A DNA stretch of 64,000 nucleotides from Candidatus Yonathbacteria bacterium (lineage in GTDB: Bacteria > Patescibacteriota > Minisyncoccia > Phycocordibacterales > JACNGX01), in contig JAAXWR010000003.1 of assembly GCA_013334825.1 (NCBI GenBank), forward strand, positions 101,167-165,166, given 5' to 3'. Below the pieces are notes generated by a model, which was not told the DNA's origin, did no database searches, and worked only from the letters and a program-made list of their open reading frames with translations. This document shows positions 3,156-50,148 of the stretch, piece by piece. The stretch's first letter is position 1. Each line of letters opens with the position of its first letter. A program made the position numbers and the translations under genes.

Positions 3156-3204
3156 TTTGTTTTCAGTACTACGAACTACGAACTAAGAACTACGAACTTC
3201 GTCC

Positions 3205-4782: not shown

Positions 4783-4900
4783 GAAGATAGTATAGCAAAT
4801 AGAAAAGGAGGTGAGAAAGATAGTATGTGAGTATATGGAGACGGTATATAAGTACGTACGTATTTTTGAGAAGAAAAATGGGGGGGATTGACGTTCGAGT

Positions 4901-5827: not shown

Positions 5828-5871
5828 CACTCGCCGCATCATCGGCGGGTTTTTGTTTGGAGATAGATATA

Positions 5872-6270: not shown

Positions 6271-6340
6271 AAGAAAAGAATATGATGAATAACATACTAT
6301 GTAAACGCGCGCGGGCACTATGCCCGCGCGCTTCTTTTGC

Positions 6341-6742
6341 TTATTTACTATTGATATGTTCTTTGCATGTAGTTGCCGCAGGGTTTGCTTCCAATCGGTC
6401 TTCTTCAATTTCTTTTTCGCAAATTCTACATGTGCCATAGGTACCTGCTTCGATACGCTCGAGCGCGTCATTGACTTCAGCGAGACGTTCTTCAAGGGGG
6501 GCTGTGACACCGATGCGTGTAACGAATTCTTCTACAGCATCCGCGCGAACATTGAGATCAGGATCATTGATATCAAGTTCATCATCTGGCATAGGTTGCC
6601 AATCGTCTTTGTTTTCTGGATTGATACGACCGATACCGTGAAGTTCGGACTCGAGTGTTGCCTTCTCTTCGAGAAGTGATTGTTTGTATGTGTCAGTATT
6701 CATGATACGAACACTATAGCATGCTCGTTTGAAGGAGTCCAT
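6341..6742 (-). CDS. DksA/TraR-family C4-type zinc-finger protein.
   Basis: C-terminal CRIC-x18-CKEH zinc ribbon preceded by an RLEANPAA-like motif and a coiled-coil N-terminus. Confidence 0.6.
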   Translation of the reverse strand: MDSFKRACYSVRIMNTDTYKQSLLEEKATLESELHGIGRINPENKDDWQPMPDDELDINDPDLNVRADAVEEFVTRIGVTAPLEERLAEVNDALERIEAGTYGTCRICEKEIEEDRLEANPAATTCKEHINSK

Positions 6743-6749
6743 AAGGGAA

Positions 6750-8267
6750 TTATTTTCTCTTCTCCTGAATGATACGGTTTACGATTTCGTCCATAGTATC
6801 AGGACTTGTGGCGATAATAAGTGTTTCTTTGTCATAAAACGTATAAAGGAGAACGATATTCCCCGACATATCCTTGAGCGAACGGACGTCACGGTTTTTT
6901 ATAATGACATCTTCCCACTGTTTTTCGAATACGCTTTGATCAACAGAAATACCAAACATGGGAATAAGATCTCGGGCCATGGATGGTTCCCATTTGAGCA
7001 TACCAGAAAAAGCATTATCAAAAAGATCATTGGTGGTTGTAAATACCAAAAATCCTTGATTCCCATTCCAGACATGAACACCGAGTTCATATATGGGGCC
7101 AAACGAACGTGCAAGCCATGAAGGCATCGAACTCCCAATGAGAGAAAGAAATCGTTCAGTTTGTACGACCGTCACAGATGACGTCCCATCGAGGCCGACA
7201 CTCTGTTCCGTCACGTATAATTGAGAAATTGAATCAATAAACATGTCAGTATTGAGAATGGTATTTTTTATTGCATTCCGTACAGATGCTTCTTCAAGTC
7301 CGTTTGCTGAAATCTCTTTTTTTCCTTCAGTTGAAAAGAGTGCAGGAACCTCAAGTGTTGTCCTCGATGTTTCTCCGTTAGAGAATGTTTGTGTATACCA
7401 ATACCATCCACCGACGCCGAGTGACGCAGTCCCAAGGATAAGTAATGCGATTGCACCGTAGACGAATGCGTTATTTTTCTTTTTTTCTACAATCGCTACC
7501 TCCGCTTTCTCTTCAGATATGCGATGTTCTGCAAGAACTGATTGGACCATGGATGGCTTTTGAGAACGCATTGCCTCTGCGACATCTGATTCAAATGTAC
7601 GGAGACTTCGGAGTAATGTTTTTTCACCCGCTTCTGTTGCGTGTTTCTCTCCTCGTGCTGTTGCTTCTTTCGTTCGTGCTTCGTCCGCGGCGATTTCCTC
7701 GGGGCTTTTATGTTGGGACGCCATGACGTCTGCTGCAAAAAGTGGGTCACCTGGTTCTGTGGGACGAATAATTTCTTCTGGTTTGAGAAGTTCTTTTTCT
7801 CGGGCAAGACCTTCTTTGATTGCTTGTAGATGTGGTGCTGGTCCGCGCTCTATGGGGGATCGTTCTTGATGTGTACGGAGTTCTCGGGCGATTGATGTAT
7901 CAGGAACCGATAGTGAGGATTCTCCTGAAGGAGAAGAAGATGGTTCTTTTTGAGAAGCAGATGTAGATGGTGTAACGTTTTCACGAAACGGGTCAGAAGA
8001 GGGGGTGGATGAATGTGAATCCGAGGTGGCGAGTGTGTTGTTGAGCACCACTGATGTTTTTTTTGTGTAAGATGATTGTGTGACTGGAAGAGGGTCAGGT
8101 TCTTTTAGAGAGATATTTGTAGGGGCTACCGCTTCTCGATAGGTGTCAGCGGTTTTTGTATTGGTTGTGGATGTTTCTGTCCCTGGCACACTCAACACAC
8201 GTTCTTCTGCGTTGGGAGAAACGGGAGTGATTGTATCCGAGTCAATGGTAAAAATCGGATCAGCCAT
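6750..8267 (-). CDS. Membrane-anchored hypothetical protein with a low-complexity Ser/Thr/Pro-rich N-terminal region, one TM helix and a C-terminal globular domain.
   Basis: TM segment AFVYGAIALLILGTASLGVGGWYWY. No catalytic motif recognised. Confidence 0.6.
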   Translation of the reverse strand: MADPIFTIDSDTITPVSPNAEERVLSVPGTETSTTNTKTADTYREAVAPTNISLKEPDPLPVTQSSYTKKTSVVLNNTLATSDSHSSTPSSDPFRENVTPSTSASQKEPSSSPSGESSLSVPDTSIARELRTHQERSPIERGPAPHLQAIKEGLAREKELLKPEEIIRPTEPGDPLFAADVMASQHKSPEEIAADEARTKEATARGEKHATEAGEKTLLRSLRTFESDVAEAMRSQKPSMVQSVLAEHRISEEKAEVAIVEKKKNNAFVYGAIALLILGTASLGVGGWYWYTQTFSNGETSRTTLEVPALFSTEGKKEISANGLEEASVRNAIKNTILNTDMFIDSISQLYVTEQSVGLDGTSSVTVVQTERFLSLIGSSMPSWLARSFGPIYELGVHVWNGNQGFLVFTTTNDLFDNAFSGMLKWEPSMARDLIPMFGISVDQSVFEKQWEDVIIKNRDVRSLKDMSGNIVLLYTFYDKETLIIATSPDTMDEIVNRIIQEKRK

Positions 8268-8927: not shown

Positions 8928-8972
8928 AACACTGCAATAGGCAGGGCGCAAGCCCCGCCTATTGCAGTGTTA
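8928..8972 (-). terminator. Long GC hairpin downstream of pnp.
   Basis: aacactgcaataggcagggcgcaagccccgcctattgcagtgtt forms a 14-bp stem, followed by AACTAAGAACTACGAAC low-complexity repeats. Confidence 0.5.
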
Positions 8973-9082
8973 ATTTTCAACTAAGAACTACGAACTAAGA
9001 ACTACGAACTCTGGCACAAAGCGTATACCGCCAATGCCCCTATCTTTTCTGACAACTAAGGCCTAATCAATAACAACTCATC

Positions 9083-11302: not shown

Positions 11303-11662
11303 AGCATATGTCCCCTTGTCGACACATGACGGCGTTGAAAGATTTCAGTGCCGAGTATGTGGCGACGAGAGAGAAAATAGTAAATGATAAACTAAAAACG
11401 ATATAAACAAAAAACTATAAACGATAAACTTTTTATAATTAACGATATAGGACCGACTTTAAACGAGTAAATATTGATAACGCATGTCGTGGCGCGGCGC
11501 TTCGCGCCGCGCCTCCATATACAACACCCCAAGTATACCCCGCCAAAGCAGTACTATGAAAGCCCTTGATTTTTTTCTATTATCTGCTATAATATACGAG
11601 TAATGTACCTCTTTAACAAATGACCGCTAAAAAAGCGGTCGCAAAAGATAAAAGGAAAAACA

Positions 11663-12325
11663 ATGAAAAAACTTTTTATGATTTTGGTGGCCGTCATCGG
11701 CCTTGGTTTTGCTAACTCCGCCTCGGCTGAACCCGTGTCTGGTAGCCTTGGCTACCAGCATGATTATATCAGTGGCAAAAACAAGGTCTTTGAGGGTGCC
11801 CTTGTTGTGGGTTCTGCCAGCGTCCCTCTCGGCAACGGGTTCTCGGTGAACCATTGGTTCGCCTATGATCCCGACGGGAAAAAGTTTTTCGAGAGGGACT
11901 GGTCCCTCGTGAAAAAACTTTCGGCATTCGACGCGAAGGTTACAGGGTCAGCGTCGCTGAACTTGTACAACTTCGGCGCAGGGTACGGCGACCTTGCAGA
12001 GCAGGGTGACGCCGCCTCAATTGAGGCAAATGCGTCCGTTCCCGTCGCCGAAGGGGTTTCCCTTTTTGGCGGTGCGGAGAGCATCACCATCATCTCGGCT
12101 GACGGAGACTTCACCACCGCATATGCGGGAGTGAAGTTGCAGAAGGGCGGGTTCTACCTGAAACCGCGGTTGCAGGTGCAGACCAACGACAGCCCGTATG
12201 GACGTATTGACGTTGGAGGATCGATCGACGTCGGTAACGGCATTACGTTTGACCCAGCAGCCAAGGTTGTCGTGGCTGAGGACCGCAAGCCGAATTTTCA
12301 GGTTGCGGTTGAAGTTCCTTTTTGA
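11663..12325 (+). CDS. Secreted beta-rich hypothetical protein (signal peptide, Gly/Ser/Ala-rich, C-terminal Phe).
   Basis: Signal peptide MKKLFMILVAVIGLGFANSASA, an upstream TATAAT -10 box at about 11596, and a downstream terminator at 12334-12365. Confidence 0.7.
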   Translation: MKKLFMILVAVIGLGFANSASAEPVSGSLGYQHDYISGKNKVFEGALVVGSASVPLGNGFSVNHWFAYDPDGKKFFERDWSLVKKLSAFDAKVTGSASLNLYNFGAGYGDLAEQGDAASIEANASVPVAEGVSLFGGAESITIISADGDFTTAYAGVKLQKGGFYLKPRLQVQTNDSPYGRIDVGGSIDVGNGITFDPAAKVVVAEDRKPNFQVAVEVPF

Positions 12326-14097: not shown

Positions 14098-14194
14098 GGA
14101 AAGAGCATACCATAGACGGACGATATGTGCAAGCGCTTGAATAAGCTTATAGGGTATAGGAAATAGGTGAGAAGTGAGAGGGGTGAACACTCGA

Positions 14195-14400
14195 ATCAAG
14201 CGTGCCCTGTACCCTACGTGGTGCAGGGAATCACGAAGCACGAATCAAGAATTAAGGGTTACGAAGTACGAACTTATACGAACATACGAAACGGGACGGG
14301 GATTAAGAAATATGAACATATGAATAACGAATATGTACGCCTGCCCCGCACCCTACGTGGCGTGCTGTGCATCCTACGTGGTGCATGGTGCTGGGGAATA
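14195..14400 (+). repeat. Cluster of REP-like palindromes (core ccctgtaccctacgtggtgcaggg) with low-complexity ACGAA/GAAAT repeats extending to about 14520.
   Basis: Imperfect palindromes with a G-T wobble on the + strand at about 14205-14230 and about 14340-14395. Related copies lie at 44955-44980 and 52580-52650. Confidence 0.6.
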
Positions 14401-14540
14401 TACGAAATGGGACGTGAATTATGAAATATGAAATTAGAAATATGAAGAAGAAAACTATAAAATAAAAAAGAAAAGAAATCATATGCGCATGTTCGTATAA
14501 GTTCGTACTTCGTAACCAATCTTCATGTTACAATACTCTT

Positions 14541-15458
14541 ATGTCGCACAATATTGACGAACAGGTTACGCGCTTTCTTGAGTATATAGAGATTGAGCGT
14601 GGACGGAGTTTAAAAACGGTTGCCAACTATGACCGCTATCTTCGTCGCTTTGTCGCATTCTCTGGCATTTCTTCTCCCGCAGATATCACTGATGAAACAG
14701 TGCGTCGTTTTCGTTTATGGCTTAATAAACAAGAAGTGCATGATGGTGGCACGATGAAAAAGAAAACACAAAATTACTATCTCATTGCGCTCCGAAGTTT
14801 TCTCAAGTACTTGGCGAAACAAGGAATTAGTTCTCTTGCGCCTGAACGTATTGAACTTGCGTCTGTTGGGGCACGGGACCTTGATCTTATTTCATCGCAA
14901 GAACTTGAGCGATTGCTCACTGCTCCTGATGGAGATTCTCTCACTGCACTCCGTGACCGAGCGATACTCGAACTTTTTTTCTCGACAGGACTGCGCGTAT
15001 CGGAACTCGCATCTCTTTCGCGAGATATTGATATTGAAAAAGACGAATTTTCCGTGCGTGGTAAAGGTGAAAAAATCCGTGTCGTTTTCGTCTCCCCTTC
15101 TGCCCGTAGTGCGGTAAAGCAATATCTCAAAGCGCGCAAAGATTTGGATGATGCGCTGTTTGTCCAACTTGGTCCACGTGCAAAAACAGCTGAAGAAATG
15201 CGTCTTACATCACGGAGTATTGAGCGCATTGTGAAGCACTACGCTATCAAAGCAGGTATTTCACGTAAGGTTACCCCGCACATTATTCGGCACTCTTTCG
15301 CGACAGATCTTCTTCGTAATGGAGCTGACCTGCGGAGTGTGCAAGCAATGCTTGGTCACGCCAACATTCAAACAACACAAGTATATACGCACGTGACTGA
15401 CAAACAACTGCGCGAGATACATAAAGCATTTCACGGAACTGCGCGGAAGAAACGCTGA
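14541..15458 (+). CDS. Tyrosine site-specific recombinase of the XerC/XerD family.
   Basis: C-terminal catalytic box HIIRHSFATDLLRNGADLRSVQAMLGHANIQTTQVYTHV and an N-terminal SAM-like domain. Confidence 0.9.
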   Translation: MSHNIDEQVTRFLEYIEIERGRSLKTVANYDRYLRRFVAFSGISSPADITDETVRRFRLWLNKQEVHDGGTMKKKTQNYYLIALRSFLKYLAKQGISSLAPERIELASVGARDLDLISSQELERLLTAPDGDSLTALRDRAILELFFSTGLRVSELASLSRDIDIEKDEFSVRGKGEKIRVVFVSPSARSAVKQYLKARKDLDDALFVQLGPRAKTAEEMRLTSRSIERIVKHYAIKAGISRKVTPHIIRHSFATDLLRNGADLRSVQAMLGHANIQTTQVYTHVTDKQLREIHKAFHGTARKKR

Positions 15459-18686: not shown

Positions 18687-20168
18687 CTAACTAACGCCAT
18701 ATTTTTTTCGTATTTGTTTGAGTTCTTTTTCTTCTTCCTCCTCTCTCTTTTCTTTTCCTTGCTCTCCCAGTATACGAAGTTCGTTGTCAGTAAGCCCGGT
18801 AAGTTCATGCGTACGTGCATCAAGATATAGTTCTGTATTTTTGTCTGGGTCATCGAGTACATCCTCCAGAAGCGCGTGAAGTATCCATCCCAGTCGCGGT
18901 CCCGCAGCTTCTTTGGTGAGTGTCATGATGCGATTGCCGTTGGTTTTGAGCATACCGACTGATACAGGTGCGCGCATGGCTTCTTCAACCATTGCCTCGT
19001 ATTTGCGGAGACGATACGGGCGCTCCTTTGGCCGACCCATGCCGATACGATCGCATGTGCGCAAATTCATAAGGTCACGCACCAGTTCAGGTCCGACATT
19101 GTGCACAATACGACGTACTGCCGAAAGTGTAATCTGTTCGATATCGGAAAAGAACATATGATAACGGACAAGCTTACGGACATTTTCTATCGTATCGCGT
19201 GGGTATTTAAGACATTCAAGGACATGTTTTGCTGTACGGGCACCCACAACTTCATGTCCGTAAAAGGTCGCATGTCCTTTAGAAGTATCATCTCGCCGTG
19301 TCGTCGGCTTTGCAACGTCGTGTAACAATGCAGCGAGACGGATATGAAGAGGAAATCCTTTATCTGCAGCATGTTGGAGTGTCCGCAAGCTATGTTCCCA
19401 CACCGGATAGATATGGTCTCCGTTCTGTGTAACGTTTATCCCCTCTTCGAGCTCAGGCATTATATGCTTTAGAAGCCCCGCGTCATGGGCTATTTGTATG
19501 CCAGCCATAGGTTGCGCGGACATAATCAACCGTGAAAACTCATCACGGATACGTTCCTTGGAAACATGAGAGAGAAGCTCTGCATGCTTCATGATAGCTT
19601 CTTGAGTTTTTGGAGCTATCGTGAAACCAAGTTCTGCTGACAATCGTATGGCACGAACCATGCGAAGTGCATCTTCAGTAAAACGCTCAGATGGGTCACC
19701 AACAGTAACGAGACGCATGTCCTTTATGTCCTTTTGTCCGTTATAAAGGTCAATCAAATGTCCTTTAGACGGATCATAAGCAATGGCATTGACCGTGAAG
19801 TCACGACGTTTCAAGTCATCTTCCAAATGTTCACTAAAGTGTACTTCATCCGGACGACGTTTGTCCGAGTACGTACCTTCAAGGCGATACGGCGTTACTT
19901 CAACGACACGAAGCGTTTGATCGTCTGTTTCATTCACTACACCGACGGTACCATATTCATTTTCATAAAATGTTTCAGTAAAGAGTGATTGAATGATATC
20001 GGGCGTGGCGTTCGTGGTAATGTCCCAGTCTTTTGGTTGTGCGCCACGAATAAGATCACGCACACATCCACCGACGAGGTAGGCCTCATGGCCAGCCTTT
20101 TGGAGCGTTTCGGTTACTATAAGAATCTCTTTAGGGATGGGGTAGCGTTTCGTCATGCTGTTAATCAT
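18687..20168 (-). CDS. cca: CCA-adding tRNA nucleotidyltransferase with a C-terminal HD domain.
   Basis: PolyA_pol head domain (GGCVRDLIRGAQPKDWDITT) and an HD-domain C-terminus. Confidence 0.9.
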   Translation of the reverse strand: MINSMTKRYPIPKEILIVTETLQKAGHEAYLVGGCVRDLIRGAQPKDWDITTNATPDIIQSLFTETFYENEYGTVGVVNETDDQTLRVVEVTPYRLEGTYSDKRRPDEVHFSEHLEDDLKRRDFTVNAIAYDPSKGHLIDLYNGQKDIKDMRLVTVGDPSERFTEDALRMVRAIRLSAELGFTIAPKTQEAIMKHAELLSHVSKERIRDEFSRLIMSAQPMAGIQIAHDAGLLKHIMPELEEGINVTQNGDHIYPVWEHSLRTLQHAADKGFPLHIRLAALLHDVAKPTTRRDDTSKGHATFYGHEVVGARTAKHVLECLKYPRDTIENVRKLVRYHMFFSDIEQITLSAVRRIVHNVGPELVRDLMNLRTCDRIGMGRPKERPYRLRKYEAMVEEAMRAPVSVGMLKTNGNRIMTLTKEAAGPRLGWILHALLEDVLDDPDKNTELYLDARTHELTGLTDNELRILGEQGKEKREEEEEKELKQIRKKYGVS

Positions 20169-20206: not shown

Positions 20207-20803
20207 TTATTCTGTAATGACATTAGTATTGAGAAATTCATTTTTTAAAAAATCTGTAAAATCGGACATTTCTTTTCGATATAGTGTTAGTTTTTCATGT
20301 TGTTCTTCTTGAGAGAGAAGAGGTATTATTGTGGCGCCGAAACTCTGAACGCGGAAACTACCGAATGCTCCTATACGATCAAAAGTGAGACGTGCATCGA
20401 AAGGTGTCTCTCTTTGTGAATAAAACACTGACAACAGATTAGTCATGTTCTGCCGTTGTTGTAGATTTTCAATCGTCCACTGGTGTTCTAACTCTTTTCG
20501 CATACCTCCCTCTGAATCATCAAAATGCTCAGGTTCCGGAGCACAGATTTCTACCCAAGGAAATAGTTCACCCTGTGTTCCATCAGTTTCTTCATGTCCC
20601 TCACAGGATTGGCTTGTGGTAAATTCATATGCACGAAAGGCGGTTACTGTGTCTTTGATTCCCGCTTCAACACCAAAACCGAGACGGTCAGTTATCAGTT
20701 GTACCTCGGCTTGAACAGTATCCCATTGGGATTTCCTTTTGTTATTCATAGTGTCGCTTTCGTCTATCGAAGCATGAGATGTTGATGATTCTATGTGAGT
20801 CAT
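20207..20803 (-). CDS. Acidic hypothetical protein.
   Basis: 198-aa ORF with no recognised domain. Confidence 0.5.
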   Translation of the reverse strand: MTHIESSTSHASIDESDTMNNKRKSQWDTVQAEVQLITDRLGFGVEAGIKDTVTAFRAYEFTTSQSCEGHEETDGTQGELFPWVEICAPEPEHFDDSEGGMRKELEHQWTIENLQQRQNMTNLLSVFYSQRETPFDARLTFDRIGAFGSFRVQSFGATIIPLLSQEEQHEKLTLYRKEMSDFTDFLKNEFLNTNVITE

Positions 20804-20962
20804 AATGATATGTTTGATGATATGAGGTGGCTATTAGGATTCGAATACTATCTTCTAGAGCAGTAGACTTGTATGGTTATGATTATTAACATAATGCTAC
20901 GTTAAAAATCTAACACCCGCAACCCTATTTTACTGAAACCTAATTATGACAAGTGAAGTGGA

Positions 20963-20984
20963 CGCGAAGCAAGCAGTTGCTTCG
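20963..20984 (+). repeat. Hairpin gcgaagcaa-gcag-ttgcttcgc. It is the inverted-orientation counterpart of the hairpin gcgatgcaa-ctgc-ttgcatcgc at about 22945 and 33946, with a compensatory A-T to T-A swap.
   Basis: Direct sequence comparison. It lies adjacent to an antisense tRNA-Arg 3'-end fragment (tgtaggggcaccc). Confidence 0.6.
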
Positions 20985-20994
20985 CTGTAGGGGC

Positions 20995-21096
20995 ACCCAG
21001 CCCTACTTTCATGAGAGAGTCAGAATGTAAAATAATTTAAATACACAGAATAACCATAGGCAATCACACATACATACTATATGAAAATAGAGCTGG
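20995..21096 (-). mobile_element. MITE-like element, copy a. Terminal inverted repeats cccagccctactttcat / atgaaaatagagctggg flank an AT-rich core of about 68 bp.
   Basis: It shares its terminal inverted repeats with copies at 21123-21225, 28784-28882, 22836-22934 and 33836-33935. It is flanked by tRNA-Arg 3'-end fragments in opposite orientations (gtaggggcaccc ... gggtgcccctaccagg). Confidence 0.65.
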
Positions 21097-21122
21097 GTGC
21101 CCCTACCAGGAACACTCACTGC

Positions 21123-21225
21123 TCCCCAGCCCTAATTTCATCACGGGCAATCGTACATGTAACAACCGTATACACTGGCAAAAAATTATACATGTATATG
21201 CGTAATACATGAAAGTAGAGCTGGG
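21123..21225 (+). mobile_element. MITE-like element, copy b. It is the near-identical inverted copy of 28784-28882.
   Basis: The reverse complement matches 28784-28882 apart from a few substitutions. Terminal inverted repeats are cccagccctaatttcat / atgaaagtagagctggg. Confidence 0.7.
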
Positions 21226-21320
21226 TGTGCTCGCGAAACCCACGGTTTCGCGGACATCCTCCACGGGGAACCAGCAGGTTCCCCGACCCCCTCCGCGTTC
21301 GAATCCTGGTAGGGGCACAG
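21225..21320 (+). ncRNA. Structured 'X' element, copy 1: hairpin 1 (gcgaaac-ccacg-gtttcgc), a linker (catcctccac), hairpin 2 (ggggaacc-agca-ggttcccc), gaccccctc, then a pseudo T-arm (cgcgttcgaatcc) and a tRNA-Arg acceptor 3' fragment (tggtaggggcacag).
   Basis: Three copies exist: here, about 28693-28786 on the minus strand, and about 28536-28618 on the minus strand. Hairpin 1 stems covary (gcgaaac/gtttcgc versus cttatggaa/ttccataag) while the loop ccCNCgg is kept. It does not fold as a canonical tRNA. Confidence 0.45.
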
Positions 21321-21399
21321 TTTCCACAGCGCTTGCACTGTGACACAAAACACCACTTCTTTTTAAAGTGGTGTTTTGTGAAACTGTGCCCCTACCAGG
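21298..21399 (+). terminator. Inverted repeat gaatcctggtaggggcacagtttc ... gaaactgtgcccctaccaggattc (about 24-26 bp arms made of the tRNA-Arg 3' end) enclosing an inner hairpin caaaacaccact-tctttttaa-agtggtgttttg. This is a bidirectional terminator-like structure.
   Basis: Seen directly. The right arm is the 3' end of the minus-strand tRNA-Arg gene. Confidence 0.55.
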
Positions 21400-21458
21400 A
21401 TTCGAACCCAGAACGACGGTTCCGAAGACCGGCGTGATATCCATTTCACCATAGGGGC
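21387..21458 (-). tRNA. tRNA-Arg (anticodon TCG), no encoded CCA.
   Basis: Cloverleaf traced by hand: acceptor gccccta/taggggc, D stem gtga/tcac, anticodon loop cttcgga, T loop ttcgaat. There is one mismatch at the top of the anticodon stem. Confidence 0.8.
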
Positions 21459-21515
21459 AATGGTTTCATCATACATGGAGCAACGAGAAAAAGCAAAATA
21501 ACCGCCTTTTGGCGG

Positions 21516-22553: not shown

Positions 22554-22627
22554 GCGGGTATAGTTTAGTGGTAGAACGCGACCTTGCCATGGTTGAGACG
22601 GGAGTTCGATTCTCCCTACCCGCACCA
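22554..22627 (+). tRNA. tRNA-Gly (anticodon GCC) with an encoded CCA.
   Basis: gcgggtatagtttagtggtagaac...ttgccat...gggagttcgattctccctacccgcacca. The full cloverleaf was traced. Confidence 0.95.
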
Positions 22628-22629
22628 TA

Positions 22630-22668
22630 CAGCAAAAAGGAGACGGTTTGTCCGTCTCCTTTTTGCTG
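22630..22668 (+). terminator. Rho-independent terminator after tRNA-Gly(GCC).
   Basis: cagcaaaaaggagacggtttgtccgtctcctttttgctg hairpin with a U tract. Confidence 0.7.
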
Positions 22669-22811
22669 TATTATGGTGCGAGGTAGAGAAAGTGCATTTA
22701 TGCACTTTCATGGAGAATCGAAGCGCCGGAATATATCCTGCGCTTGCGCAGGATTTGAGGCGCCGTCCAAGAGTACTTAGCGAAATACAAGCTTTAGCGC
22801 AGTATTTCGGT

Positions 22812-23092
22812 TAGTAACTCTGGGACGATTCTCCCCCAGCCCTACTTTCATAAAAAACGCATGTACAGTACGTGCGTTTTTTATGTGATTATCAGATATA
22901 TATTTTGGGGGTGTTTCATGAAAGTAGGGCTGGGTGCGGGTAGAGCGATGCAACTGCTTGCATCGCGCTTGCCTCGCCGAAACCTGTCTTTTGGAAAGGT
23001 GAAGGCGGGTGGAGAATCGAACCGAGCACCACTTTTGCAATGGCAAAAGTGGTGCTCGGGAAGCGAATTAGTAACCGCGGGACGATTCTCCC
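22812..23092 (+). mobile_element. Composite tRNA-Gly-associated element of about 235 bp bounded by about 25-bp direct repeats (ttagtaacNNNgggacgattctccc at about 22812-22836 and about 23068-23092). It contains a MITE-like hairpin (22836-22934), an anti-tRNA-Gly acceptor (tgcgggtagag), the hairpin gcgatgcaa-ctgc-ttgcatcgc, an antisense T-arm fragment (ggcgggtggagaatcgaacc), and a 13-bp-stem hairpin (gagcaccactttt...aaaagtggtgctc).
   Basis: Direct comparison with the second copy, which is fused directly to the 3' end of tRNA-Gly(TCC) at 33836-34020. The direct repeats resemble a degenerate tRNA-Gly T-arm (gggacgattctccc versus gggagttcgattctccc). Confidence 0.6.
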
Positions 23093-23223
23093 ACAAAAAC
23101 GAACCGACCTTATGGGGCGGCTTTCGCTTTGCGCTGTGTGGGTAGAGCGATGCAACCGAAACGGGCGAACAATCGAACTTGATTTATCTTAAAAAAGATA
23201 TATACTCTGCATATATCCATACG

Positions 23224-23271
23224 AAAAGGGGTCCGAAAGGTGTTGGTGCCTAAGGACCCCTTTTCTTTTTT
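23224..23271 (-). terminator. Bidirectional terminator hairpin aaggggtcc...ggacccctt with flanking T tracts, downstream of the NYN gene.
   Basis: Seen directly. Confidence 0.6.
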
Positions 23272-23806
23272 AAAGAAATTCAATCTTTTTTCGCACATCA
23301 TTGTTTTCCAGATAATCAAAATATTCCGACCCGAGTTTTTTGTATAGGGATGACGCGAATTCCTTATTTGGAAAGAGTATTTTCTCAAACAAATTTCTTC
23401 TGACCAGATAATCAACGACTTTCTTATAATCTCCGTCTCCCGACACCAAGAGTATTTTTGATAATTCTTTATTTTCTGCGACCTGTTTCATTATTTCAAA
23501 TACAATATCAGTGTCTACATTCCCTTTTTTCTTTGCGAGGAGTAATGAATTATGTTCTTTAAAGATGACGATAAAACCTGCTTTCTGAAGATTGTTGTAT
23601 AAATCTTGTTCTTTTTCAGAAACGTATCCGATAAAATAATATGCTTCTTGAACAGCGTATTTGTCACGAAGATACACACGGAATTTTTTAAAATCGACTT
23701 TCCATCCATTTCGTGTTGTTCCGAGATGTAGATTTTGCCCATCAATGAACGCGATATTATATTTTCTCAGGGAAGTCATGTATATATCATAGCAAAAATA
23801 ACTCAC
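23270..23806 (-). CDS. NYN-domain (LabA-like) protein, second paralog.
   Basis: NIAFIDGQNLHLG N-terminal motif and a SGDGDY motif. Its local GC of about 33% is low. Confidence 0.8.
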   Translation of the reverse strand: MSYFCYDIYMTSLRKYNIAFIDGQNLHLGTTRNGWKVDFKKFRVYLRDKYAVQEAYYFIGYVSEKEQDLYNNLQKAGFIVIFKEHNSLLLAKKKGNVDTDIVFEIMKQVAENKELSKILLVSGDGDYKKVVDYLVRRNLFEKILFPNKEFASSLYKKLGSEYFDYLENNDVRKKIEFL

Positions 23807-26976: not shown

Positions 26977-27423
26977 TATTCATGTATAAAGGACATGGGA
27001 ATTGTGGAAACATTGTTGAGATATAAGGATATTTTTGTAGAAAACTGTGGATAAGTTAGTGGATATGTGTATAAAAGACATGAAAAAATATACGTCCTTT
27101 AGAAAAAAGACGGAAAGAGACAAGGTGTTCTACGTTGTTATATAAGGATATTTGACCGTTTTAAGATTATTATGGTGTTGTTTCGGTAACTTTTTGTAAA
27201 TAGTTTCACGTGAAACGTATTTTATGTAGTGTGAGATGTTTCATATGAAACTAAATGCGGACACTACGTAGAAAATCGCGGAGTAAACGCGGAAGATCGC
27301 GGAACGAAACCAGAAAGTCGCAGGTCTTGCGCAAAAACTAGATGAAGTTCTGATTCTCAAGAGTGCAGCTATTCTTGGAACATAAAAACTATTGGAGATC
27401 GATTTTGTTTGCCAATGTTCAGT

Positions 27424-27531
27424 CTGTCATTCTGGCCTTGAAAAAGAATTCACAGAGAAATGTCCCTTTTCTAGATTCCGGGTCACCTACTTCGCTAAGC
27501 TCCGCAGGTTGTAAAGTCCGGAATGACAAGC
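27424..27531 (+). mobile_element. Short element of about 108 bp with 12-bp terminal inverted repeats (tgtcattctgg ... ccggaatgacaag).
   Basis: A second copy with the same terminal inverted repeats (tgtcattccggg ... cccagaatgacag) lies at about 28128-28208. The two copies flank yraN. Confidence 0.5.
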
Positions 27532-27638: not shown

Positions 27639-28055
27639 ATGAAAACAACAAAACGTGCCTTTGGCGATATTGGCGAGGATCTCGCGGAAAAGTTTCTCAT
27701 GAAACACGGTTTTGAGGTTGTGGACCGAAACTATAACAAAAAATGGGGAGAATTGGATATTGTTGCACGTGAAACATTGAAAAAGGGCTTTAAATATAGA
27801 TTTATTGAAGTAAAAAGTGTTTCATGTGAAAACATCGAGATGATTTCACATGAAACACTGCAAAAAGACACGAGACCAGAAGAACAAGTTCATGTATGGA
27901 AACAAAAGCGTCTAGGAAAGGCGATACAAACATATATTGAAGAAAAAAAGATTTCACATGAAACACCGTGGCAGTTTGATATTGTTGCTGTTTTTATTGA
28001 TAAAACTAATAAAAAAGCGAAAATACGGTTTGTAGAGGGGGTAGTGTTAGGTTAG
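27639..28055 (+). CDS. yraN: YraN-family (UPF0102) PD-(D/E)xK endonuclease with an in-frame repeat insertion of about 25 aa.
   Basis: An AFGDIGEDLAEKFL...GELDIVA...FIEVK core, with an inserted segment ...SCENIEMISHETLQKD...KISHETPWQ. The insertion is encoded by three TTTCACATGAAAC palindromes at about 27820-27966. Confidence 0.8.
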   Translation: MKTTKRAFGDIGEDLAEKFLMKHGFEVVDRNYNKKWGELDIVARETLKKGFKYRFIEVKSVSCENIEMISHETLQKDTRPEEQVHVWKQKRLGKAIQTYIEEKKISHETPWQFDIVAVFIDKTNKKAKIRFVEGVVLG

Positions 28056-28410
28056 AGCTTATAGGTGTTAGGTTATAGATACAGGTAGGGAGTAAGAGTG
28101 AATGATAAACCGAGGAGATTAAAAACGCTCTGTCATTCCGGGCTTGACCTGGAATCTATGGAGTGGTGCCTACTCTCTGGATTCTTGGTCAAACCCAGAA
28201 TGACAGACCGAACATTGATAAACGAAACACTTTCTAATGGTTTTTATCTTCTGAGAATAGTTTTACTCTAGGAACTTTGTTTAGTTTCCGCATCAGTTCC
28301 GTGACTTTCCGCGTATATTCTGCATATCTTCCGTGTCTAGTCCGCACCGTGTCCGCGTGTGTTCCGCGTAGGTTTTATAAAGGACACTAAAGGACATCCA
28401 CAGGGTATTT

Positions 28411-28446: not shown

Positions 28447-28519
28447 CGGGGCATAGTGTAACGGCTAACATGCCTGCTTTGGGAGCAGGTGACTCCCGGT
28501 TCGAATCCGGGTGCCCCGA
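28447..28519 (+). tRNA. tRNA-Pro (anticodon TGG), no encoded CCA.
   Basis: cggggcatagtgtaacggctaac...cctgctttgggagcagg...ggttcgaatccgggtgccccga. Cloverleaf traced. Confidence 0.95.
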
Positions 28520-28535
28520 ACGCAGTGAGGAGTAC

Positions 28536-28618
28536 TCGGATTCGAACCGAGGAGGGGGTCGGGGAACCTGCGGTTCCCCGTGTCGGAAGTCTGCGAAACC
28601 GAGGGTTTCGCAAGCGCA
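28536..28618 (-). ncRNA. Structured 'X' element, copy 3 (hairpin gcgaaac-cctcg-gtttcgc, hairpin ggggaacc-gca-ggttcccc, T-arm-like ctcggttcgaatccgag).
   Basis: It shares its architecture with 21225-21320. It lies immediately downstream of tRNA-Pro on the opposite strand. Confidence 0.45.
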
Positions 28619-28692
28619 GGGAAGGTGAGCGCATCCCGCGAACCTTCCCGAGCAGTAAGGTTCCGGGTGCCCCGAAAGAGCGGAGCGATTTC

Positions 28693-28786
28693 TGGACACC
28701 CGGATTCGAACGCGAAGGGGGTCGGGGAAACTGTAGTTTTCCCGTGGAGGAGGCTTATGGAACCGTGGGTTCCATAAGCGCACCCA
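28693..28786 (-). ncRNA. Structured 'X' element, copy 2 (hairpin cttatggaa-cccacgg-ttccataag, hairpin ggggaaaactacagttttcccc, pseudo T-arm cgcgttcgaatccgggtgtcc).
   Basis: Same order of elements as copy 1. Hairpin 1 stem differs completely while the loop and linker are conserved, which is covariation. Confidence 0.45.
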
Positions 28787-28882
28787 GCTCTACTTTCATG
28801 TATTACGCATATACACGTATAATTTTTTGCCAGTGTATACGGTTGTTATGTGTACGATTGCCCGTGATGAAAGTAGGGCTGG
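28784..28882 (-). mobile_element. MITE-like element, copy c (inverted copy of 21123-21225). It is followed by gagcagtgagtatt and a third copy of the tRNA-Pro 3' end (ccgggtgccccga at about 28898-28910).
   Basis: Near-identity of the reverse complement to copy b. The tRNA-Pro 3'-terminal 13 nt recur at 28506-28519, 28665-28677 and 28898-28910. A direct repeat gcagtgag(g)agta(c)t(c)gg lies at about 28522-28540 and about 28887-28900. Confidence 0.65.
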
Positions 28883-29052
28883 GGAGCAGTGAGTATTCCG
28901 GGTGCCCCGAAAAAACATGTTAGGAAATGCCGAATTTTATATTGCTTTACGGAACGAGGATTATCTTCACCGCCACTCCATCAAAAAACAATTACGGAAT
29001 AACCGTTTTTGAATAAAGATACTATATTCTGAACATGTAATTTTTTTATCTT

Positions 29053-33594: not shown

Positions 33595-33764
33595 TTTCCT
33601 CTCCAAAACCCGCCTCTGGCGGGTTTTGTGTTTTTTTGATAGGATAGGGAAGCGAGACGAGAAGTTAGAAATTAGGAATTAGAAATATGAAGAGAATATG
33701 TGATTTGGTCGTTGCGTAGTCCGTTCTACGAACTACGAACCATGAACTAAGAACTAGTAACAAC

Positions 33765-33837
33765 GCGGGTATAGTTTAGTGGTAGAACCTCTGCCTTCCA
33801 AGCAGATGACGGGAGTTCGATTCTCCCTACCCGCACC
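33765..33837 (+). tRNA. tRNA-Gly (anticodon TCC). CC is encoded but the terminal A is not.
   Basis: gcgggtatagtttagtggtagaac...ctgccttccaagcag...gggagttcgattctccctacccgcacc. Same body as tRNA-Gly(GCC) with a different anticodon arm. Confidence 0.95.
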
Positions 33838-34020
33838 CAGCCCTACTTTCATAAAAAACGCATGTACAGTACGTGCGTTTTTTATGTGATTATCAGATAT
33901 ATATTTTGGGGGTGTTTCATGAAAGTAGGGCTGGGTGCGGGTAGAGCGATGCAACTGCTTGCATCGCGCTTGCCTCGCCGAAACCTGTCTTTGAGACAGG
34001 TGAAGGCGGGTGGAGAATCA
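33836..34020 (+). mobile_element. Second copy of the tRNA-Gly-associated element, fused directly to the tRNA 3' end. It is truncated after ggcgggtggagaatc and is followed by a minus-strand terminator.
   Basis: It is more than 98% identical to 22836-23017. The inverted-repeat arms are ctacccgcacccagccctactttcat / atgaaagtagggctgggtgcgggtag (26 bp including the tRNA acceptor). Confidence 0.65.
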
Positions 34021-34057
34021 AATAAAAAACCGGCGCCCATAAGGGCGCCGTGACATT

Positions 34058-35402: not shown

Positions 35403-35491
35403 ATGGGAACATCACTTAAAAACAAACGCAAAAGCGTGAAGCGTCGTCGTCGCAAGAAAATGCGTCGTGAGAATCGCTTTAAGAACAAATA
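35403..35491 (+). CDS. 29-aa highly basic peptide (MGTSLKNKRKSVKRRRRKKMRRENRFKNK). It may be a ribosome-associated small protein of the bS22-like class.
   Basis: Not in the ORF track because it is shorter than 60 aa. It has its own terminator (aaaaagagtcgcttcatgcgactcttttt at about 35494-35525) and an upstream promoter-like TTGCAT...TTAAAT. Identity is by composition only. Confidence 0.35.
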
Positions 35492-35653
35492 ACAAAAAGA
35501 GTCGCTTCATGCGACTCTTTTTGTTATTTGTTTAGGAATATGAAAAACGAAATATGAAATATGTGGAAGCAAAACTATCCAGAGATACTATTGAATACAG
35601 TATGATACATATTGGTATATGCCAGTAACCAGCGACCAGTTACTAGTGACTAA

Positions 35654-35710
35654 CTTCACCCACTTACGAAAAAACTCCGCAATGCGGAGTTTTTTCGTAA
35701 GTGGGTGAAG
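35654..35710 (-). terminator. Perfect palindrome with 25-bp arms (cacccacttacgaaaaaactccgca / tgcggagttttttcgtaagtgggtg), a bidirectional terminator downstream of hup.
   Basis: Seen directly. Confidence 0.65.
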
Positions 35711-35711
35711 T

Positions 35712-45116: not shown

Positions 45117-45189
45117 GTCCCTATAGTCTAATGGATAGAATGCGACCCTCCGAAGGTCGAGATCCAGGTTCGATTCCTGGTAGGGGCAC
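45117..45189 (+). tRNA. tRNA-Arg (anticodon CCG), no clean CCA.
   Basis: gtccctatagtctaatggatagaatgcgaccctccgaaggtcgagatccaggttcgattcctggtaggggcacc. Promoter-like TTGCAC, a 17-bp spacer, TATACT lies upstream. Confidence 0.9.
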
Positions 45190-45272
45190 CCCATTGAGTT
45201 TTAAGTTTTCAGTTGCTAGTTGCCAGTTTCAAGTATACACAAAAAAGCCGCGCGAAGCGCGGCATTGGAGAT

Positions 45273-50110: not shown

Positions 50111-50148
50111 AGATATATGTTAAGAATTAAGAATTTAAGAATAAGGAA

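Follow-up and report, generated by a model that had tools for sequence, protein, structure and literature searches.

The window, that is, the whole 64,000-nucleotide stretch of the Candidatus Yonathbacteria contig analysed here, contains tRNA genes for Arg(tcg), Gly(gcc), Pro(tgg), Gly(tcc) and Arg(ccg). In Rfam 15 only these five tRNAs reach the gathering score, the sub-threshold matches being to generic hairpin (miRNA-precursor) models. Behind most of the tRNA genes that we examined lie stacks of non-coding hairpin modules, which carry direct and mirror copies of that tRNA's own tail (Table 1). Exact matches to tRNA ends in the 64-kb window are confined to the tRNA loci, and the tRNAs at the junctions of the modules are intact according to ARAGORN and Rfam. 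In what follows, the repeated tRNA segment is called the 3' block, its reverse complement the antisense block, and a module bounded by direct copies a unit.

Table 1. Positions of tRNA genes, units and hairpin elements in the window (window coordinates; a dot marks features without strand)
Feature	Position	Strand	Description
Second antisense Arg acceptor and CTGC-loop hairpin	20964..20996	-	antisense acceptor (gtgcccctac, minus strand), then conserved 9-bp CTGC-loop hairpin
Hairpin element copy 1	20996-21097	.	centre of second sense/antisense Arg palindrome (fold z -4.8)
tRNA-Arg 3' block direct copy and linker	21097..21125	-	direct copy cctggtaggggcac and conserved linker ggagcagtgagtgtt, in tRNA orientation
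Hairpin element copy 2	21125-21225	.	position of the 31-nt hairpin in relatives and in Pro unit 1
Arg unit-internal hairpins	hpB 21233-21251, hpA 21265-21284	-	about 88% shared with Pro units
Arg fold-back palindrome	21292..21412	.	tRNA-Arg 3' block / pair of terminator-type hairpins / antisense block
tRNA-Arg(tcg)	21386..21458	-	ARAGORN, Rfam; 3' block (T-loop to discriminator) is the sequence repeated there
tRNA-Gly(gcc)	22554..22627	+	ARAGORN, Rfam
Unit X, Gly-gcc	22603..22834	+	3' block / terminator / antisense acceptor (22674-22687) / bulged hairpin (22688-22709) / antisense T block (22710-22722) / hairpins / R hairpin (22771-22820) / truncated direct copy (22822-22834)
Hairpin element copy 4	22835-22934	.	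Gly-gcc locus
Unit Y remainder	22934..23093	+	antisense acceptor, CTGC hairpin (22945-22966), antisense T block (23007-23026), hairpin; right end gaagcgaattagtaaccgc, then direct copy gggacgattctccca (23079-23093)
tRNA-Pro(tgg)	28447..28519	+	ARAGORN, Rfam
Pro unit 1	28520..28675	+	antisense T block, hpA, hpB, 31-nt hairpin (28619-28649), linker, direct copy ccgggtgccccga
Pro unit 2	28676..28910	+	antisense T block, hpA', hpB', element copy 3, linker, direct copy
Hairpin element copy 3	28783-28883		within Pro unit 2
tRNA-Gly(tcc)	33765..33837	+	ARAGORN, Rfam
Gly-tcc array	33836..34050	+	copy 5, antisense acceptor and CTGC hairpin (33935-33967), antisense T remnant (34008-34019), terminator (34024-34050)
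Hairpin element copy 5	33836-33935		immediately 3' of tRNA-Gly(tcc)
tRNA-Arg(ccg)	45117..45190	+	empty site in the window

A common scaffold behind tRNA genes

Behind Gly, Arg, Pro, Val and Glu tRNA genes the parts follow one order: the tRNA 3' block, a hairpin, the reverse complement of the block, further hairpins and a direct copy of the block. The repeated block spans the first T-loop base to the discriminator, and the central hairpin of a unit is either a terminator or an element of about 100 nt. Units are non-coding and 150-400 nt long; the direct repeats of the tRNA 3' segment that bound them measure 13-29 nt, and their junction lies consistently in the T-loop, between GGGA and CGA. The antisense block of Gly, Arg and Ser units is interrupted, where its acceptor and T parts meet, by a conserved hairpin of 9 bp with a CTGC loop. 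Ten copies of this hairpin were counted, all at that junction of Gly, Arg or Ser blocks, and its stem shows compensatory changes.

The copies are cognate to the tRNA that they follow. Within 700 nt downstream of 21 tRNAs, cognate acceptor probes matched in sense for 10 and in antisense for 10, and cognate T probes in sense for seven and in antisense for 13; upstream matches numbered at most one, and non-cognate probes gave 2-9%. The antisense copy also follows species-specific changes in the tRNA, namely the discriminator G of Arg in L113 and a G at the T-stem/acceptor junction of Gly in L114, and it follows the tRNA type in L108 (Arg CG). In five loci (Gly, Arg and Val, from genomes 66-100% related), the fold-back stem begins exactly at the first T-loop base, with free energies of -41 to -59 kcal/mol in DNA folds (z -12 to -18). 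In such folding models, the antisense arm of one folded unit strand can rebuild a duplex replica of the 3' terminus of the tRNA gene. Antisense blocks often have no downstream partner.

Two other origins for the copies were considered and rejected. Priming of reverse transcription by a tRNA does not agree with the junction, which reads A-CCC-AGC and not the mature CCA end, or with antisense copies that match genomic sequence. The antisense acceptor could also be read as a sense copy of the tRNA 5' strand. This was rejected as a general reading because the antisense T block reverse-complements a non-palindromic Gly T-loop (aatcgaa) and, in T stems with wobble pairs, their 3' strand. A single case, gtGTCCCTA in L102, is compatible with both the antisense-acceptor and the 5'-strand readings.

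Very long perfect palindromic terminators, many of 20-30 bp, are abundant in this genome. The palindromes that lie 3' of protein genes do not extend into the coding 3' ends.

The arrays of the window

At tRNA-Arg(tcg), the original prediction of an inverted repeat of the tRNA 3' end around terminator hairpins held and could be extended, as the arms are 33 nt long (21292-21324 and 21380-21412), are 94% identical and give a DNA fold of -54 kcal/mol (z -13.7). A truncated second Arg unit terminates within 20964..20996. The Arg and Pro units share an interior that is 88% identical and carry different cognate ends, and the Arg-tcg unit of the window is 94% identical to a unit at the Arg-ccg locus of L102. 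The tRNA-Arg(tcg) of the window has acceptor pairs of the Arg-ccg type, unlike the relatives for which the Arg-tcg 3' block was read. A Logan contig stops inside element copy 2.

The tRNA-Pro 3' end does occur three times, as first reported (28507, 28663 and 28898), and two Pro units are present in the window versus one in relatives. In Pro unit 1 the 31-nt hairpin occupies the position that the element has in other units. A UPF0102 (YraN-like) nuclease is encoded beside tRNA-Pro. Between the window and L097, the segment made of element, linker and direct copy shows 98.5% identity, and the next ORF 88.8%. At the Gly loci, Unit X folds with -54.5 (z -18.2) and the Gly-tcc array with -42.8 (z -9.5). 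Unit X follows tRNA-Gly(tcc) in L098 and is absent from that place in the window, the endpoints being the direct repeat cgattctccctacccgcac.

A polar family of 100-nt hairpin elements

Five inverted-repeat elements of 98-102 nt, all non-coding, lie in the window; across the copies compared, the length is 98-103 nt. The 16-mer CCAGCCCTACTTTCAT, searched with up to three mismatches, gives 10 matches that form five inverted pairs, against 0.32 in shuffled sequence, which bears out the five elements first noted. The complete terminal repeat is 17-18 bp long, (A/C)CCCAGCYCTAMTTTCAT, and in the alignment of copies the termini read CCCAGCYC...GRGCTGGG. Over 16 distinct copies the terminal repeats are 94.5% paired, with compensatory changes in four pairs. 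As read from the alignment, the arms contain CTAC/GTAG and have no internal palindromes. The cores had been described as variable and AT-rich; instead, all copies align as one polar family, cores included, and polarity relative to the tRNA is the same in 25 of 26 copies. The flanks of these 26 copies are inverted or unrelated and show no direct target-site duplications. The five elements are members of a family of palindromic repeats of about 100 nt, non-coding and similar to REPINs and MITEs.

Each element was originally described as having a tRNA end on its left and the exact reverse complement on its right. This arrangement is found only at copies 1 (Arg) and 5 (Gly-tcc). Copy 4 has an antisense Gly end at its right and a truncated sense fragment, gggacgattctcc, at its left, and the flanks of copies 2 and 3 read gcRcac and ggagcagtgag, with a tRNA fragment about 15 nt away on one side only. 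Nor are the elements at every Arg, Pro and Gly locus, since tRNA-Arg(ccg), one of the five loci, has none.

Gain, loss and transfer in relatives

Orthologous loci of Candidatus Yonathbacteria-like relatives carry the scaffold too, the most distant of them sharing 66% protein identity; populations of this kind are represented in metagenomes (JGI Ga0194xxx, SRR11449211/2, ERZ272xxxxx). L107, a 95% relative, lacks the element at its Arg-tcg and Gly-gcc loci, and the regions sampled from the 80-81% and 66% relatives contain none. At those two loci of L107 and at the sampled loci of L108, L111 and L114, the same sense/hairpin/antisense scaffold surrounds an ordinary terminator hairpin. The counterpart of the element in relatives is a 47-nt terminator, a 31-nt hairpin or the 50-nt R hairpin. 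The 100-nt hairpin holds the exact place of a shorter hairpin at the centre of the palindrome in relatives. In L113, a sister subfamily of the element is found at non-tRNA sites as well, with non-tRNA arms; the copies of the species cluster studied here occur only in tRNA arrays.

It had been proposed that the small elements integrate into tRNA 3' ends or copy them by way of their hairpins. Repeated duplication of tRNA 3' ends downstream, direct copies that bound polymorphic units and a central role of hairpins are all borne out. The 100-nt element is, however, not the carrier or generator of the tRNA ends, because relatives without it have the same scaffold with an ordinary terminator hairpin instead. 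Comparison of orthologous loci likewise revealed presence and absence of units with boundaries at direct copies; the 100-nt element occupies the site of a shorter hairpin. An occurrence of copies away from tRNAs, which would mark an ordinary REP or MITE, is seen in part, for the hairpin itself, in the sister subfamily of L113. The tRNA-matched flanks are part of an older scaffold and not of the hairpin, and the 100-nt elements are the youngest interchangeable hairpins inside the tRNA-linked stacks.

Between direct copies, units come and go, and they also pass from one isoacceptor locus or lineage to another. A segment of terminator plus antisense block is near-identical in the window and in L113 (a 74% relative) and different in closer relatives, and the Gly-gcc unit of L107 is similar to the Gly-tcc unit of L113. 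In L107 and L113 the displaced copy retains its native CCA and terminator. The Arg-ccg site, empty in the window, is occupied in L103/L138 (93-94% relative) by a copy-1-type element and a 2.7-kb island bracketed by two inverted element copies that are 100% identical. The tRNA loci of these genomes are hot spots for islands.

Search for an enzyme or an autonomous partner

The original prediction had suggested that a XerC/D-like recombinase encoded at 14541-15458 could act in trans. In all relatives this gene belongs to the core and keeps its synteny with rpsO/pnp, and to judge by sequence it is without specific link to the elements. When the window Xer was compared by phmmer with all ORFs of the fetched loci, it matched only itself, and no second tyrosine recombinase emerged. 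No transposase, HUH protein or integrase was found with Pfam/NCBIfam in 40 window ORFs and 10 island ORFs, and the 2.7-kb island has no recognisable recombinase gene. Neither units nor island encode a recognisable recombinase.

Searching one terminal repeat against the GTDB representative genomes, which do not include the source species, returned 95 single chance-level matches and no genome with several copies. The viral and metagenome partner scans used a pattern of two repeats spaced by 50-80 nt, which detects small elements only, so that a full-length autonomous partner is not detectable by them; this pattern had no match on viral contigs. The right end of a unit, TTAGTRACNNNGGGACGA, had 23 chance matches on viral contigs, none tRNA-like, and a phage-borne attP was not found. 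In the promoter and terminator scan, counts were not above those of shuffled sequence, with no promoter inside the elements and no above-chance promoter-like site in the arrays. Literature searches likewise yielded no description of such a tRNA-tail hairpin layout, and together with the Rfam result this agrees with the original remark that no annotated family of this architecture was recognised.

Discussion

We tentatively favour the view that the elements are interchangeable hairpin cassettes in older units lying 3' of tRNA genes, and that the units are selfish DNA whose spread depends on folding. The units would behave as non-autonomous selfish DNA, and their anatomy suggests a propagation by recombination or template switching that needs the DNA to be folded into a hairpin or cruciform, has its anchor in the near-palindromic T-arm and involves a host enzyme acting in trans. 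Such movement may be closer to that of folded single-strand CTX-phi attP or integron attC sites than to cut-and-paste transposition, and homogenisation of the palindrome could keep the antisense arm cognate. However, several points weigh against this view. The loci yielded no enzyme and no circular junction or single-stranded intermediate. The presence of the scaffold at orthologous loci down to 66% protein identity would be expected as well if it had a conserved function, or if it were inherited vertically and subject to local gene conversion, in place of ongoing mobility. Fold-back pairing extends just 2-3 nt past the inferred crossover point, which does not obviously yield a canonical two-monomer site for a tyrosine recombinase across that point. 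A new tRNA identity requires coordinated replacement of the sense and antisense arms, for which we see an indirect route only. Finally, as the genome is rich in long perfect palindromic terminators, palindrome growth free of any mobile element may explain part of the pattern.

A further proposal, which we consider rather doubtful, is that the fold-back is a three-way junction that copies the acceptor/T-arm helix and serves as the recognition structure of an undescribed structure-directed recombination or copying system. In this structure the tRNA 3' block would pair with its antisense copy, with the bulged CTGC hairpin at the acceptor/T junction. As an analogue of integron attC or CTX-phi attP directed at tRNAs, the system would target tRNA genes in reduced CPR genomes by way of a folded single strand and without an element-encoded enzyme. 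It could also rewrite tRNA 3' ends, as the Arg-ccg-type acceptor stem of the window tRNA-Arg(tcg) suggests.

Four other explanations have to be weighed against the favoured one. It is possible but unlikely that the units are miniature integrative elements, cis-mobilisable remnants flanked by att sites and moved as double-stranded circles by a tyrosine recombinase (the host Xer or an integrase with its gene elsewhere), with crossover in the T-loop and with the antisense copy as an accessory binding site or an accident. Units bounded by direct repeats of the tRNA 3' block with a restored proximal tRNA, a junction between GGGA and CGA, displaced copies with native CCA and terminator, and the status of tRNA loci as island hot spots are all consistent with this, and the T-loop is reportedly a known class of tRNA integration site. 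Yet no integrase was found in or near any unit or island, the sole recombinase in reach is the syntenic core Xer, and the unit end is on no viral contig; the always-cognate antisense block, its end in the T-loop and the conserved bulged hairpin would all be left unexplained. That block would be cognate by construction if no mobile element existed at all and replication switched template at a strong terminator hairpin (fold-back synthesis), with switch points in the T-arm and with gene conversion swapping hairpin cassettes between loci. Such an origin would also account for antisense and direct-copy boundaries that both lie in the T-loop, for the many perfect palindromic terminators of 20-30 bp in the genome, for the failure to find an enzyme in the loci and ORFs scanned, and for a 100-nt hairpin sitting in place at the site of shorter ones. 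We regard it as quite unlikely, however, as it leaves unexplained the identical 9-bp CTGC hairpin at one junction in Gly, Arg and Ser units, the homologous interiors with differing tRNA ends and the patchy sharing of unit variants across lineages; moreover, the palindromes of protein genes leave coding 3' ends uninvaded.

The units might instead be functional RNAs co-transcribed with the tRNA, either a cognate tRNA-like mimic or a 3' extension that refolds to control maturation. The strand order does mimic a tRNA (antisense acceptor, hairpin and antisense T, followed by the T 3' strand and the acceptor 3' strand with or without CCA), the hairpin replacing the D/anticodon domain. Compensatory changes that maintain the hairpins, the conserved CTGC loop, CCA at the end of some distal copies, the fixed polarity relative to the tRNA and the deep conservation of the scaffold point the same way, and the minus-strand Arg array folds 29 kcal/mol better in tRNA sense, opposite to the local strand trend. 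The tRNA sense folds better in 15 of 16 arrays; we do not take this as a sign of selection at the RNA level, because ordinary 400-nt windows share the plus-strand bias (mean -11, sd 15.6). The minus-strand Arg array is the single anomaly in this test, and folding asymmetry elsewhere does not exceed the genome background. A role as RNA also meets units without HP, in which a terminator-shaped hairpin with a T tract stands between tRNA and antisense block (the consensus scan called none), arrays free of above-chance promoter-like sites, antisense blocks that are frequently partnerless downstream, unit numbers that vary among close relatives, and the absence of an Rfam match, and we find it very unlikely. 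Highly improbable, in our opinion, is that the 100-nt elements are classical MITEs that prefer tRNA 3' ends and are mobilised by a transposase encoded elsewhere in the genome, a view near to that of the original prediction. Terminal inverted repeats of 17-18 bp, small size, several near-identical copies, differences in occupancy between close relatives and the L113 sister subfamily at non-tRNA sites would suit such elements. Against this, direct target-site duplications are lacking, the elements occupy sites that hold a shorter hairpin in relatives and are not simple insertions, the window ORFs scanned contain no transposase, and no autonomous partner with these termini was found (chance-level singles in GTDB; a viral and metagenome pattern that detects small elements only).

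From a biological perspective, the genomes of CPR/Patescibacteria are small and generally considered poor in mobile DNA. Here, structured and evolving non-coding modules fill up to about 600 nt behind individual tRNA genes. If the modules did travel as a folded strand resembling the tRNA gene, this would be the third natural system of this kind after integron attC and CTX-phi, and the first aimed at tRNA genes. Such a system could explain homogenisation or replacement of tRNA 3' halves. The arrays also break assemblies and mark island hot spots, and they could confuse the annotation of tRNAs and att sites in CPR genomes.

Comparison with known systems

The elements resemble MITEs such as Correia, RUP and Nezha in size, terminal inverted repeats, lack of coding capacity and copy-number polymorphism. 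Unlike MITEs, they have no target-site duplication, they occupy the site of an existing hairpin and do not simply insert, and no cognate transposase was found among the ORFs scanned. With IS200/IS605 single-strand elements and their non-autonomous PATE derivatives they may share dependence on hairpins, absence of duplications and a position beside a short fixed sequence. PATEs have subterminal hairpins without terminal inverted repeats and insert 3' of a fixed tetranucleotide, using the Y1 transposase TnpA. Here 19 nt separate the T-loop junction and the first hairpin, and about 10 nt lie between R hairpin and right junction, a spacing that we take to be roughly similar to the IS200/IS605 geometry. 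Long perfect inverted arms set the elements apart from IS200/IS605 and PATEs, and the ORFs scanned include no TnpA.

Like REP, BIME and REPIN sequences, which are mobilised in proteobacteria by RAYT, a Y1 HUH transposase, the arrays consist of short non-coding palindromic units in mosaics with conserved linkers, are extragenic at gene 3' ends and lack target duplications, and REPIN doublets also fold into hairpins of about 100 nt. In contrast to them, with arms that are each a short imperfect palindrome with a GTAG-type foot, the arms of the 100-nt elements are not small palindromes, the copies lie in tRNA arrays that contain cognate tRNA fragments, and no RAYT/Y1 transposase is among the 40 window ORFs scanned. 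The likeness to tRNA-targeted integrative elements and their integrase-less derivatives, among them genomic islands and cis-mobilisable elements, lies in the direct repeats of the tRNA 3' end, the restored proximal tRNA, tandem accretion, occupied and empty sites among relatives (Gly-tcc, Pro and Arg-ccg) and larger islands at the same loci. The units differ from these in being 150-400 nt long without an integrase and in always holding an inverted cognate att copy with a conserved bulged hairpin.

To our knowledge, neither an ssDNA replicon nor an integron integrase occurs in these genomes. The integron attC consensus of R and L boxes (RYYYAAC ... GTTRRRY) is not seen here and the target is not attI; the repeated target is a block from T-loop to discriminator and not dif, with XerC/XerD binding arms about a 6-bp centre, as in CTX-phi and IMEX, and the pairing barely crosses the inferred crossover point. 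The attP(+) of CTX-phi is made of two inverted dif-like sites used by XerCD, and folded inverted att copies and tandem arrays are known from this system (PMC4246890). As in CTX-phi attP and integron attC, two inverted target-like copies are predicted here to fold into a replica of the chromosomal site, with an asymmetric extra-helical feature on one strand, a variable terminal loop and tandem arrays. The integration product predicted from such a site (site, loop, full inverted copy, body, site) has the order observed behind these tRNA genes.

Results

Within the window, CCAGCCCTACTTTCAT has ten matches at up to three mismatches, arranged as five inverted pairs, against 0.32 in shuffles, and the five inverted-repeat elements of about 100 nt put forward in the original prediction are real. 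Their cores (66–68 nt), previously described as variable and AT-rich, are not unrelated: 16 distinct copies align as one polar family, with a left repeat, about 35 AT-rich nt, an A-run, small hairpin, and T-run, and a right repeat. Across these copies, the terminal repeats are 94.5% paired, four pairs show compensatory change, and a recurrent C.A mismatch at pair 7 on one strand is G.T on the other. Of 26 copies, 25 have the same polarity with respect to the tRNA. A public short-read Logan contig (L001, SRR11449211), 100% identical to window positions 21189–16687, terminates inside copy 2, so these 100-nt repeats break assemblies.

Features of the window (positions in nt)
Feature	Position	Remark
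tRNA-Arg-tcg	21386-21458	minus strand
tRNA-Gly-gcc	22554-22627	
tRNA-Pro-tgg	28447-28519	
tRNA-Gly-tcc	33765-33837	
tRNA-Arg-ccg	45117-45190	
tRNA-Pro 3′ end	28507, 28663, 28898	
Element copy 1	20996-21097	
Element copy 2	21125-21225	
Element copy 3	28783-28883	
Element copy 4	22835-22934	
Element copy 5	33836-33935	
Xer-like gene	14541-15458	
CCA-adding enzyme gene	18687-20168	beside Arg-tcg array
198-aa ORF	20207-20803	no family match
NYN-domain nuclease gene	23270-23806	beside Gly-gcc array
UPF0102 (YraN-like) nuclease gene	27639-28055	beside Pro array
Second palindromic family	28126-28210, 27403-27485	GTCATTCCGG...CCAGAATGAC
Long intergenic palindromes	35652-35712, 43652-43700, 35484-35532, 1402-1442, 40384-40426, 1-38, 44986-45023	arms 19-30 nt
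Tandem 7-nt repeat tracts	3163-3212, 8961-9010, 14253-14520, 33662-33769, 35532-35580, 50132-50190, 52681-52990	GAAATTA, ACGAACT, CACGAAG, variants
Repeat block, ~250 nt	14141-14395, 52524-52762	first upstream of Xer-like gene
300-nt duplicates	60524-60823, 61886-62185	99% identity
Pilin-like genes	60414-61505, 61554-62750	

An unbiased two-repeat pattern found no matches in viral sequence and ten loci in metagenomes (L097–L106), all from relatives. Loci matching the window over long stretches are 79–94% identical to it and syntenic. Further relatives, retrieved through homologs of the CCA enzyme and trigger factor, have protein identities to the window of 95% (L107), 93% (L138), 81% (L108–L110), 80% (L111), 74% (L113), and 66% (L114). 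The association with tRNAs holds in the ten metagenome loci, where each copy either occurs in the stretch downstream of a tRNA gene or adjoins a tRNA fragment (Pro, Gly-tcc, Val, Glu, Arg-ccg). In L113, at least two copies of a sister subfamily (..AGCCCCACTTTCAC / GTGAAAGT..) have no tRNA beside them, and their extended arms are non-tRNA sequence. This makes the hairpin family a general palindromic repeat, and the predicted covariation with tRNA identity, which does exist, is a property of the scaffold around it. Nor does every tRNA-Arg, tRNA-Pro, and tRNA-Gly locus carry the element, as the Arg-ccg site of the window is empty. A tRNA end and its reverse complement, said to flank every copy, do so at copies 1 and 5 alone; the flanks of copies 2 and 3 read gcRcac and ggagcagtgag, and copy 4 adjoins a truncated sense fragment.

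Read in tRNA orientation, all loci show a single recurring unit: the tRNA 3′ block, a central hairpin, the antisense acceptor strand, a 9-bp hairpin with a CTGC loop, the antisense T block, whose last base is exactly the complement of the first T-loop base, one to three more hairpins (hpA/hpB in Arg and Pro units; the R hairpin, GAGTACTTAG...CTTAGTAACTC, in Gly, Val, Glu, and Arg units), a short linker, and a direct copy of the 3′ block that begins within the T-loop or immediately past it (GGGA|CGA... or ...tt|CCNGG...). Units are stacked in pairs behind tRNA-Pro and tRNA-Gly-gcc in the window and behind tRNA-Glu in L100, there with four 100-nt hairpins. The tRNA-Arg-tcg region has one full unit, with the terminator as central hairpin and copy 2 at the inner hairpin position, followed by a truncated second unit with copy 1 as central hairpin. 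The threefold tRNA-Pro 3′ end and the tRNA-Arg 3′-end palindrome, as predicted, are both present, the latter with 33-nt arms.

We searched 700 nt downstream of 21 tRNAs with cognate probes (at most one mismatch). Sense and antisense acceptor probes each matched at 10 of the 21 loci, the sense T probe at 7, and the antisense T probe at 13, with at most one match upstream and a rate of 2–9% for control probes from other tRNA identities. Exact matches across the whole window fall at tRNA loci only. The antisense arm also tracks species-specific tRNA changes: a G discriminator in L113 Arg is met by Cgcccccgc, ..cGtacccgca in L114 Gly by tgcgggtaC, and the CG type of L108 Arg by ttgCGggggcac.

At five loci (the Gly-gcc loci of L107 and the window, L113 Arg, L099 Val, and L114 Gly-tcc), single-strand DNA folding predicts one shared shape (−41 to −59 kcal/mol; z −12 to −18), in which a fold-back stem runs from the first T-loop base through the T stem, acceptor strand, and trailer into the terminator. 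In the four Gly and Arg loci, the acceptor/T junction is exactly where the 9-bp hairpin bulges out of the returning strand; the Val fold-back is without this bulge. The CTGC hairpin occurs ten times (Gly, Arg, Ser), always at this junction, with compensatory changes between its stem variants (gcgatgcaa, gcgaagcaa, gcaagacaa, gcaaggcaa, gcaagacgc). Past the inferred crossover, pairing extends only 2–3 nt.

Units are gained and lost, and move between loci. Unit X (about 210 nt), the first behind tRNA-Gly-gcc in the window, lies behind tRNA-Gly-tcc in L098 with a 19-nt direct repeat as endpoints, and is missing there in the window. The window has two Pro units whereas L097, L106, L107, and L111 have one, that of L097 being a chimera of the window's two. 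In L107 and L113, the distal copy retains the native CCA and terminator and the proximal junction lacks CCA. The terminator-plus-antisense segment behind tRNA-Gly-gcc is almost identical in the window and L113 but different in L107, L108, and L111, and the Gly-gcc unit of L107 is similar to the Gly-tcc unit of L113. A 206-nt stretch is 88% identical between Arg and Pro units, whose ends are nonetheless cognate to each tRNA, and another hairpin pair is common to Asn (3′ side) and Ser (5′ side, with a 73-nt direct repeat including the promoter). At this tRNA-Ser-cga (L100 5358–5660), the promoter and first 20 nt are directly duplicated, and the two GC-rich hairpins between the duplicates recur in the unit behind tRNA-Asn (L104 7260–7345); this looks like a 5′-side counterpart of the 3′ units.

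The window Arg-tcg unit is 94% identical to that at the L102 Arg-ccg locus. Acceptor pairs 6:67 and 7:66 of the window tRNA-Arg-tcg are T:A and A:T, as in Arg-ccg, versus C:G and G:C in L107 (9759–9831), L108 (3096–3168), L111 (9131–9203), and L113 (9445–9517). These two compensatory pairs make its 3′ block identical to that of tRNA-Arg-ccg, which suggests that a unit may have brought in a foreign 3′ block and that the 5′ strand of the stem was then re-matched. In the 81% relatives (L108 3096–3168, L110 12–86), tRNA-Arg-tcg is inverted relative to the CCA-enzyme gene compared with the window, L107, and L111, suggesting inversion across the palindromic region.

L107 lacks the 100-nt element at Arg-tcg and Gly-gcc, and no copy occurs in the sampled 11–21 kb of L108, L110, L111, and L114. 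The site of the element is exactly that of another hairpin in relatives: it corresponds in position to a 47-nt terminator between ..cccgcac and gtgcggg.. (L107 versus unit Y, the second Gly-gcc unit), a 31-nt hairpin with aagcgca and gagcagtgag on either side (Pro unit 2 compared with Pro unit 1 and L111), and the R hairpin flanked by gtccag..gtac and taac (L100 compared with L099). Since the R hairpin base (gtaCTTAGC...GCTTAGtaac) resembles the element ends (gtaCCCAGC...GCTGGAtaac), the element may derive from it. Between the window and L097, element, linker, and direct copy are 98.5% identical, the next ORF 88.8%, and the upstream spacer about 70%. Two inverted element copies, 100% identical to each other, enclose a 2.7-kb island in L103/L102 (whole in L138). 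The island lies between the end of tRNA-Arg-ccg and the antisense copy of that end; among its six small ORFs (HTH, TPR, DUF6804, others), no recombinase gene was recognizable.

The window comes from the chromosome of a CPR/Patescibacteria bacterium and contains five tRNA genes and the housekeeping genes pnp, rny, nusA, tig, clpP, and pilB; the best named relatives of its CCA-adding enzyme belong to Candidatus Yonathbacteria (80% identity to GCA_013335575.1). The Xer-like gene adjoins rpsO/pnp in all relatives and is therefore a core gene. No other tyrosine recombinase was present in the loci covered by the search, a scan of 40 window ORFs gave neither a transposase nor an HUH protein, and Rfam matched only tRNAs. 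Gene content beside the arrays varies between the window and L107: the 198-aa ORF between the Arg array and the CCA gene is missing from L107, and a 5.5-kb restriction/defence island (EcoRI-type methylase, GmrSD, RhuM, Bro-N) adjoins its tRNA-Gly-gcc array (2766–8265). The UPF0102 and CCA gene positions are kept in most relatives sampled, and L111 has an NYN gene by its Gly-gcc array; this adjacency may be coincidence.

Other repeats are present. Motifs related to the second palindromic family form the extended arms of the L113 sister subfamily (6560–6700, 11540–11690). The intergenic palindromes are unusually long and perfect (95–100% complementary), one of 38 nt occurring twice (1–38 and 44986–45023), 7-nt repeat tracts lie upstream of genes and tRNAs, and the 300-nt duplicates fall within two neighboring genes that encode type IV secretion pilin-like domains.

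Discussion

The observations of the original prediction were partly confirmed and its interpretation partly supported. The best-supported reading is that the units would be non-autonomous selfish DNA, maintained and spread via their folded form and anchored on the near-palindromic T-arm, with the 100-nt hairpin as the youngest cassette. In such a folded single strand, two inverted att copies would pair, mimic the chromosomal site, and integrate; the observed succession of site, loop, full inverted copy, body, and site matches the product this would leave. No intermediate or enzyme for this route was seen in the loci examined. The deep conservation of the scaffold also fits a function or palindrome-driven gene conversion. 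For a function at the RNA level, strand asymmetry of folding was uninformative after background control.

The 100-nt hairpins form a new family of the known REPIN/MITE-like kind. We found no described system that matches the scaffold of cognate sense and antisense tRNA blocks and its conserved three-way junction; that the scaffold represents a new mode of tRNA-gene targeting directed by structure strikes us as rather unlikely, if worth entertaining. Folded single-strand integration is known for integron attC sites. CTX-phi likewise uses a folded strand with two inverted att copies and, in addition, forms tandem arrays (PMC4246890). The units resemble CTX-phi in both respects, their order being the expected product of folded-strand integration and tandem arrays being common to both.
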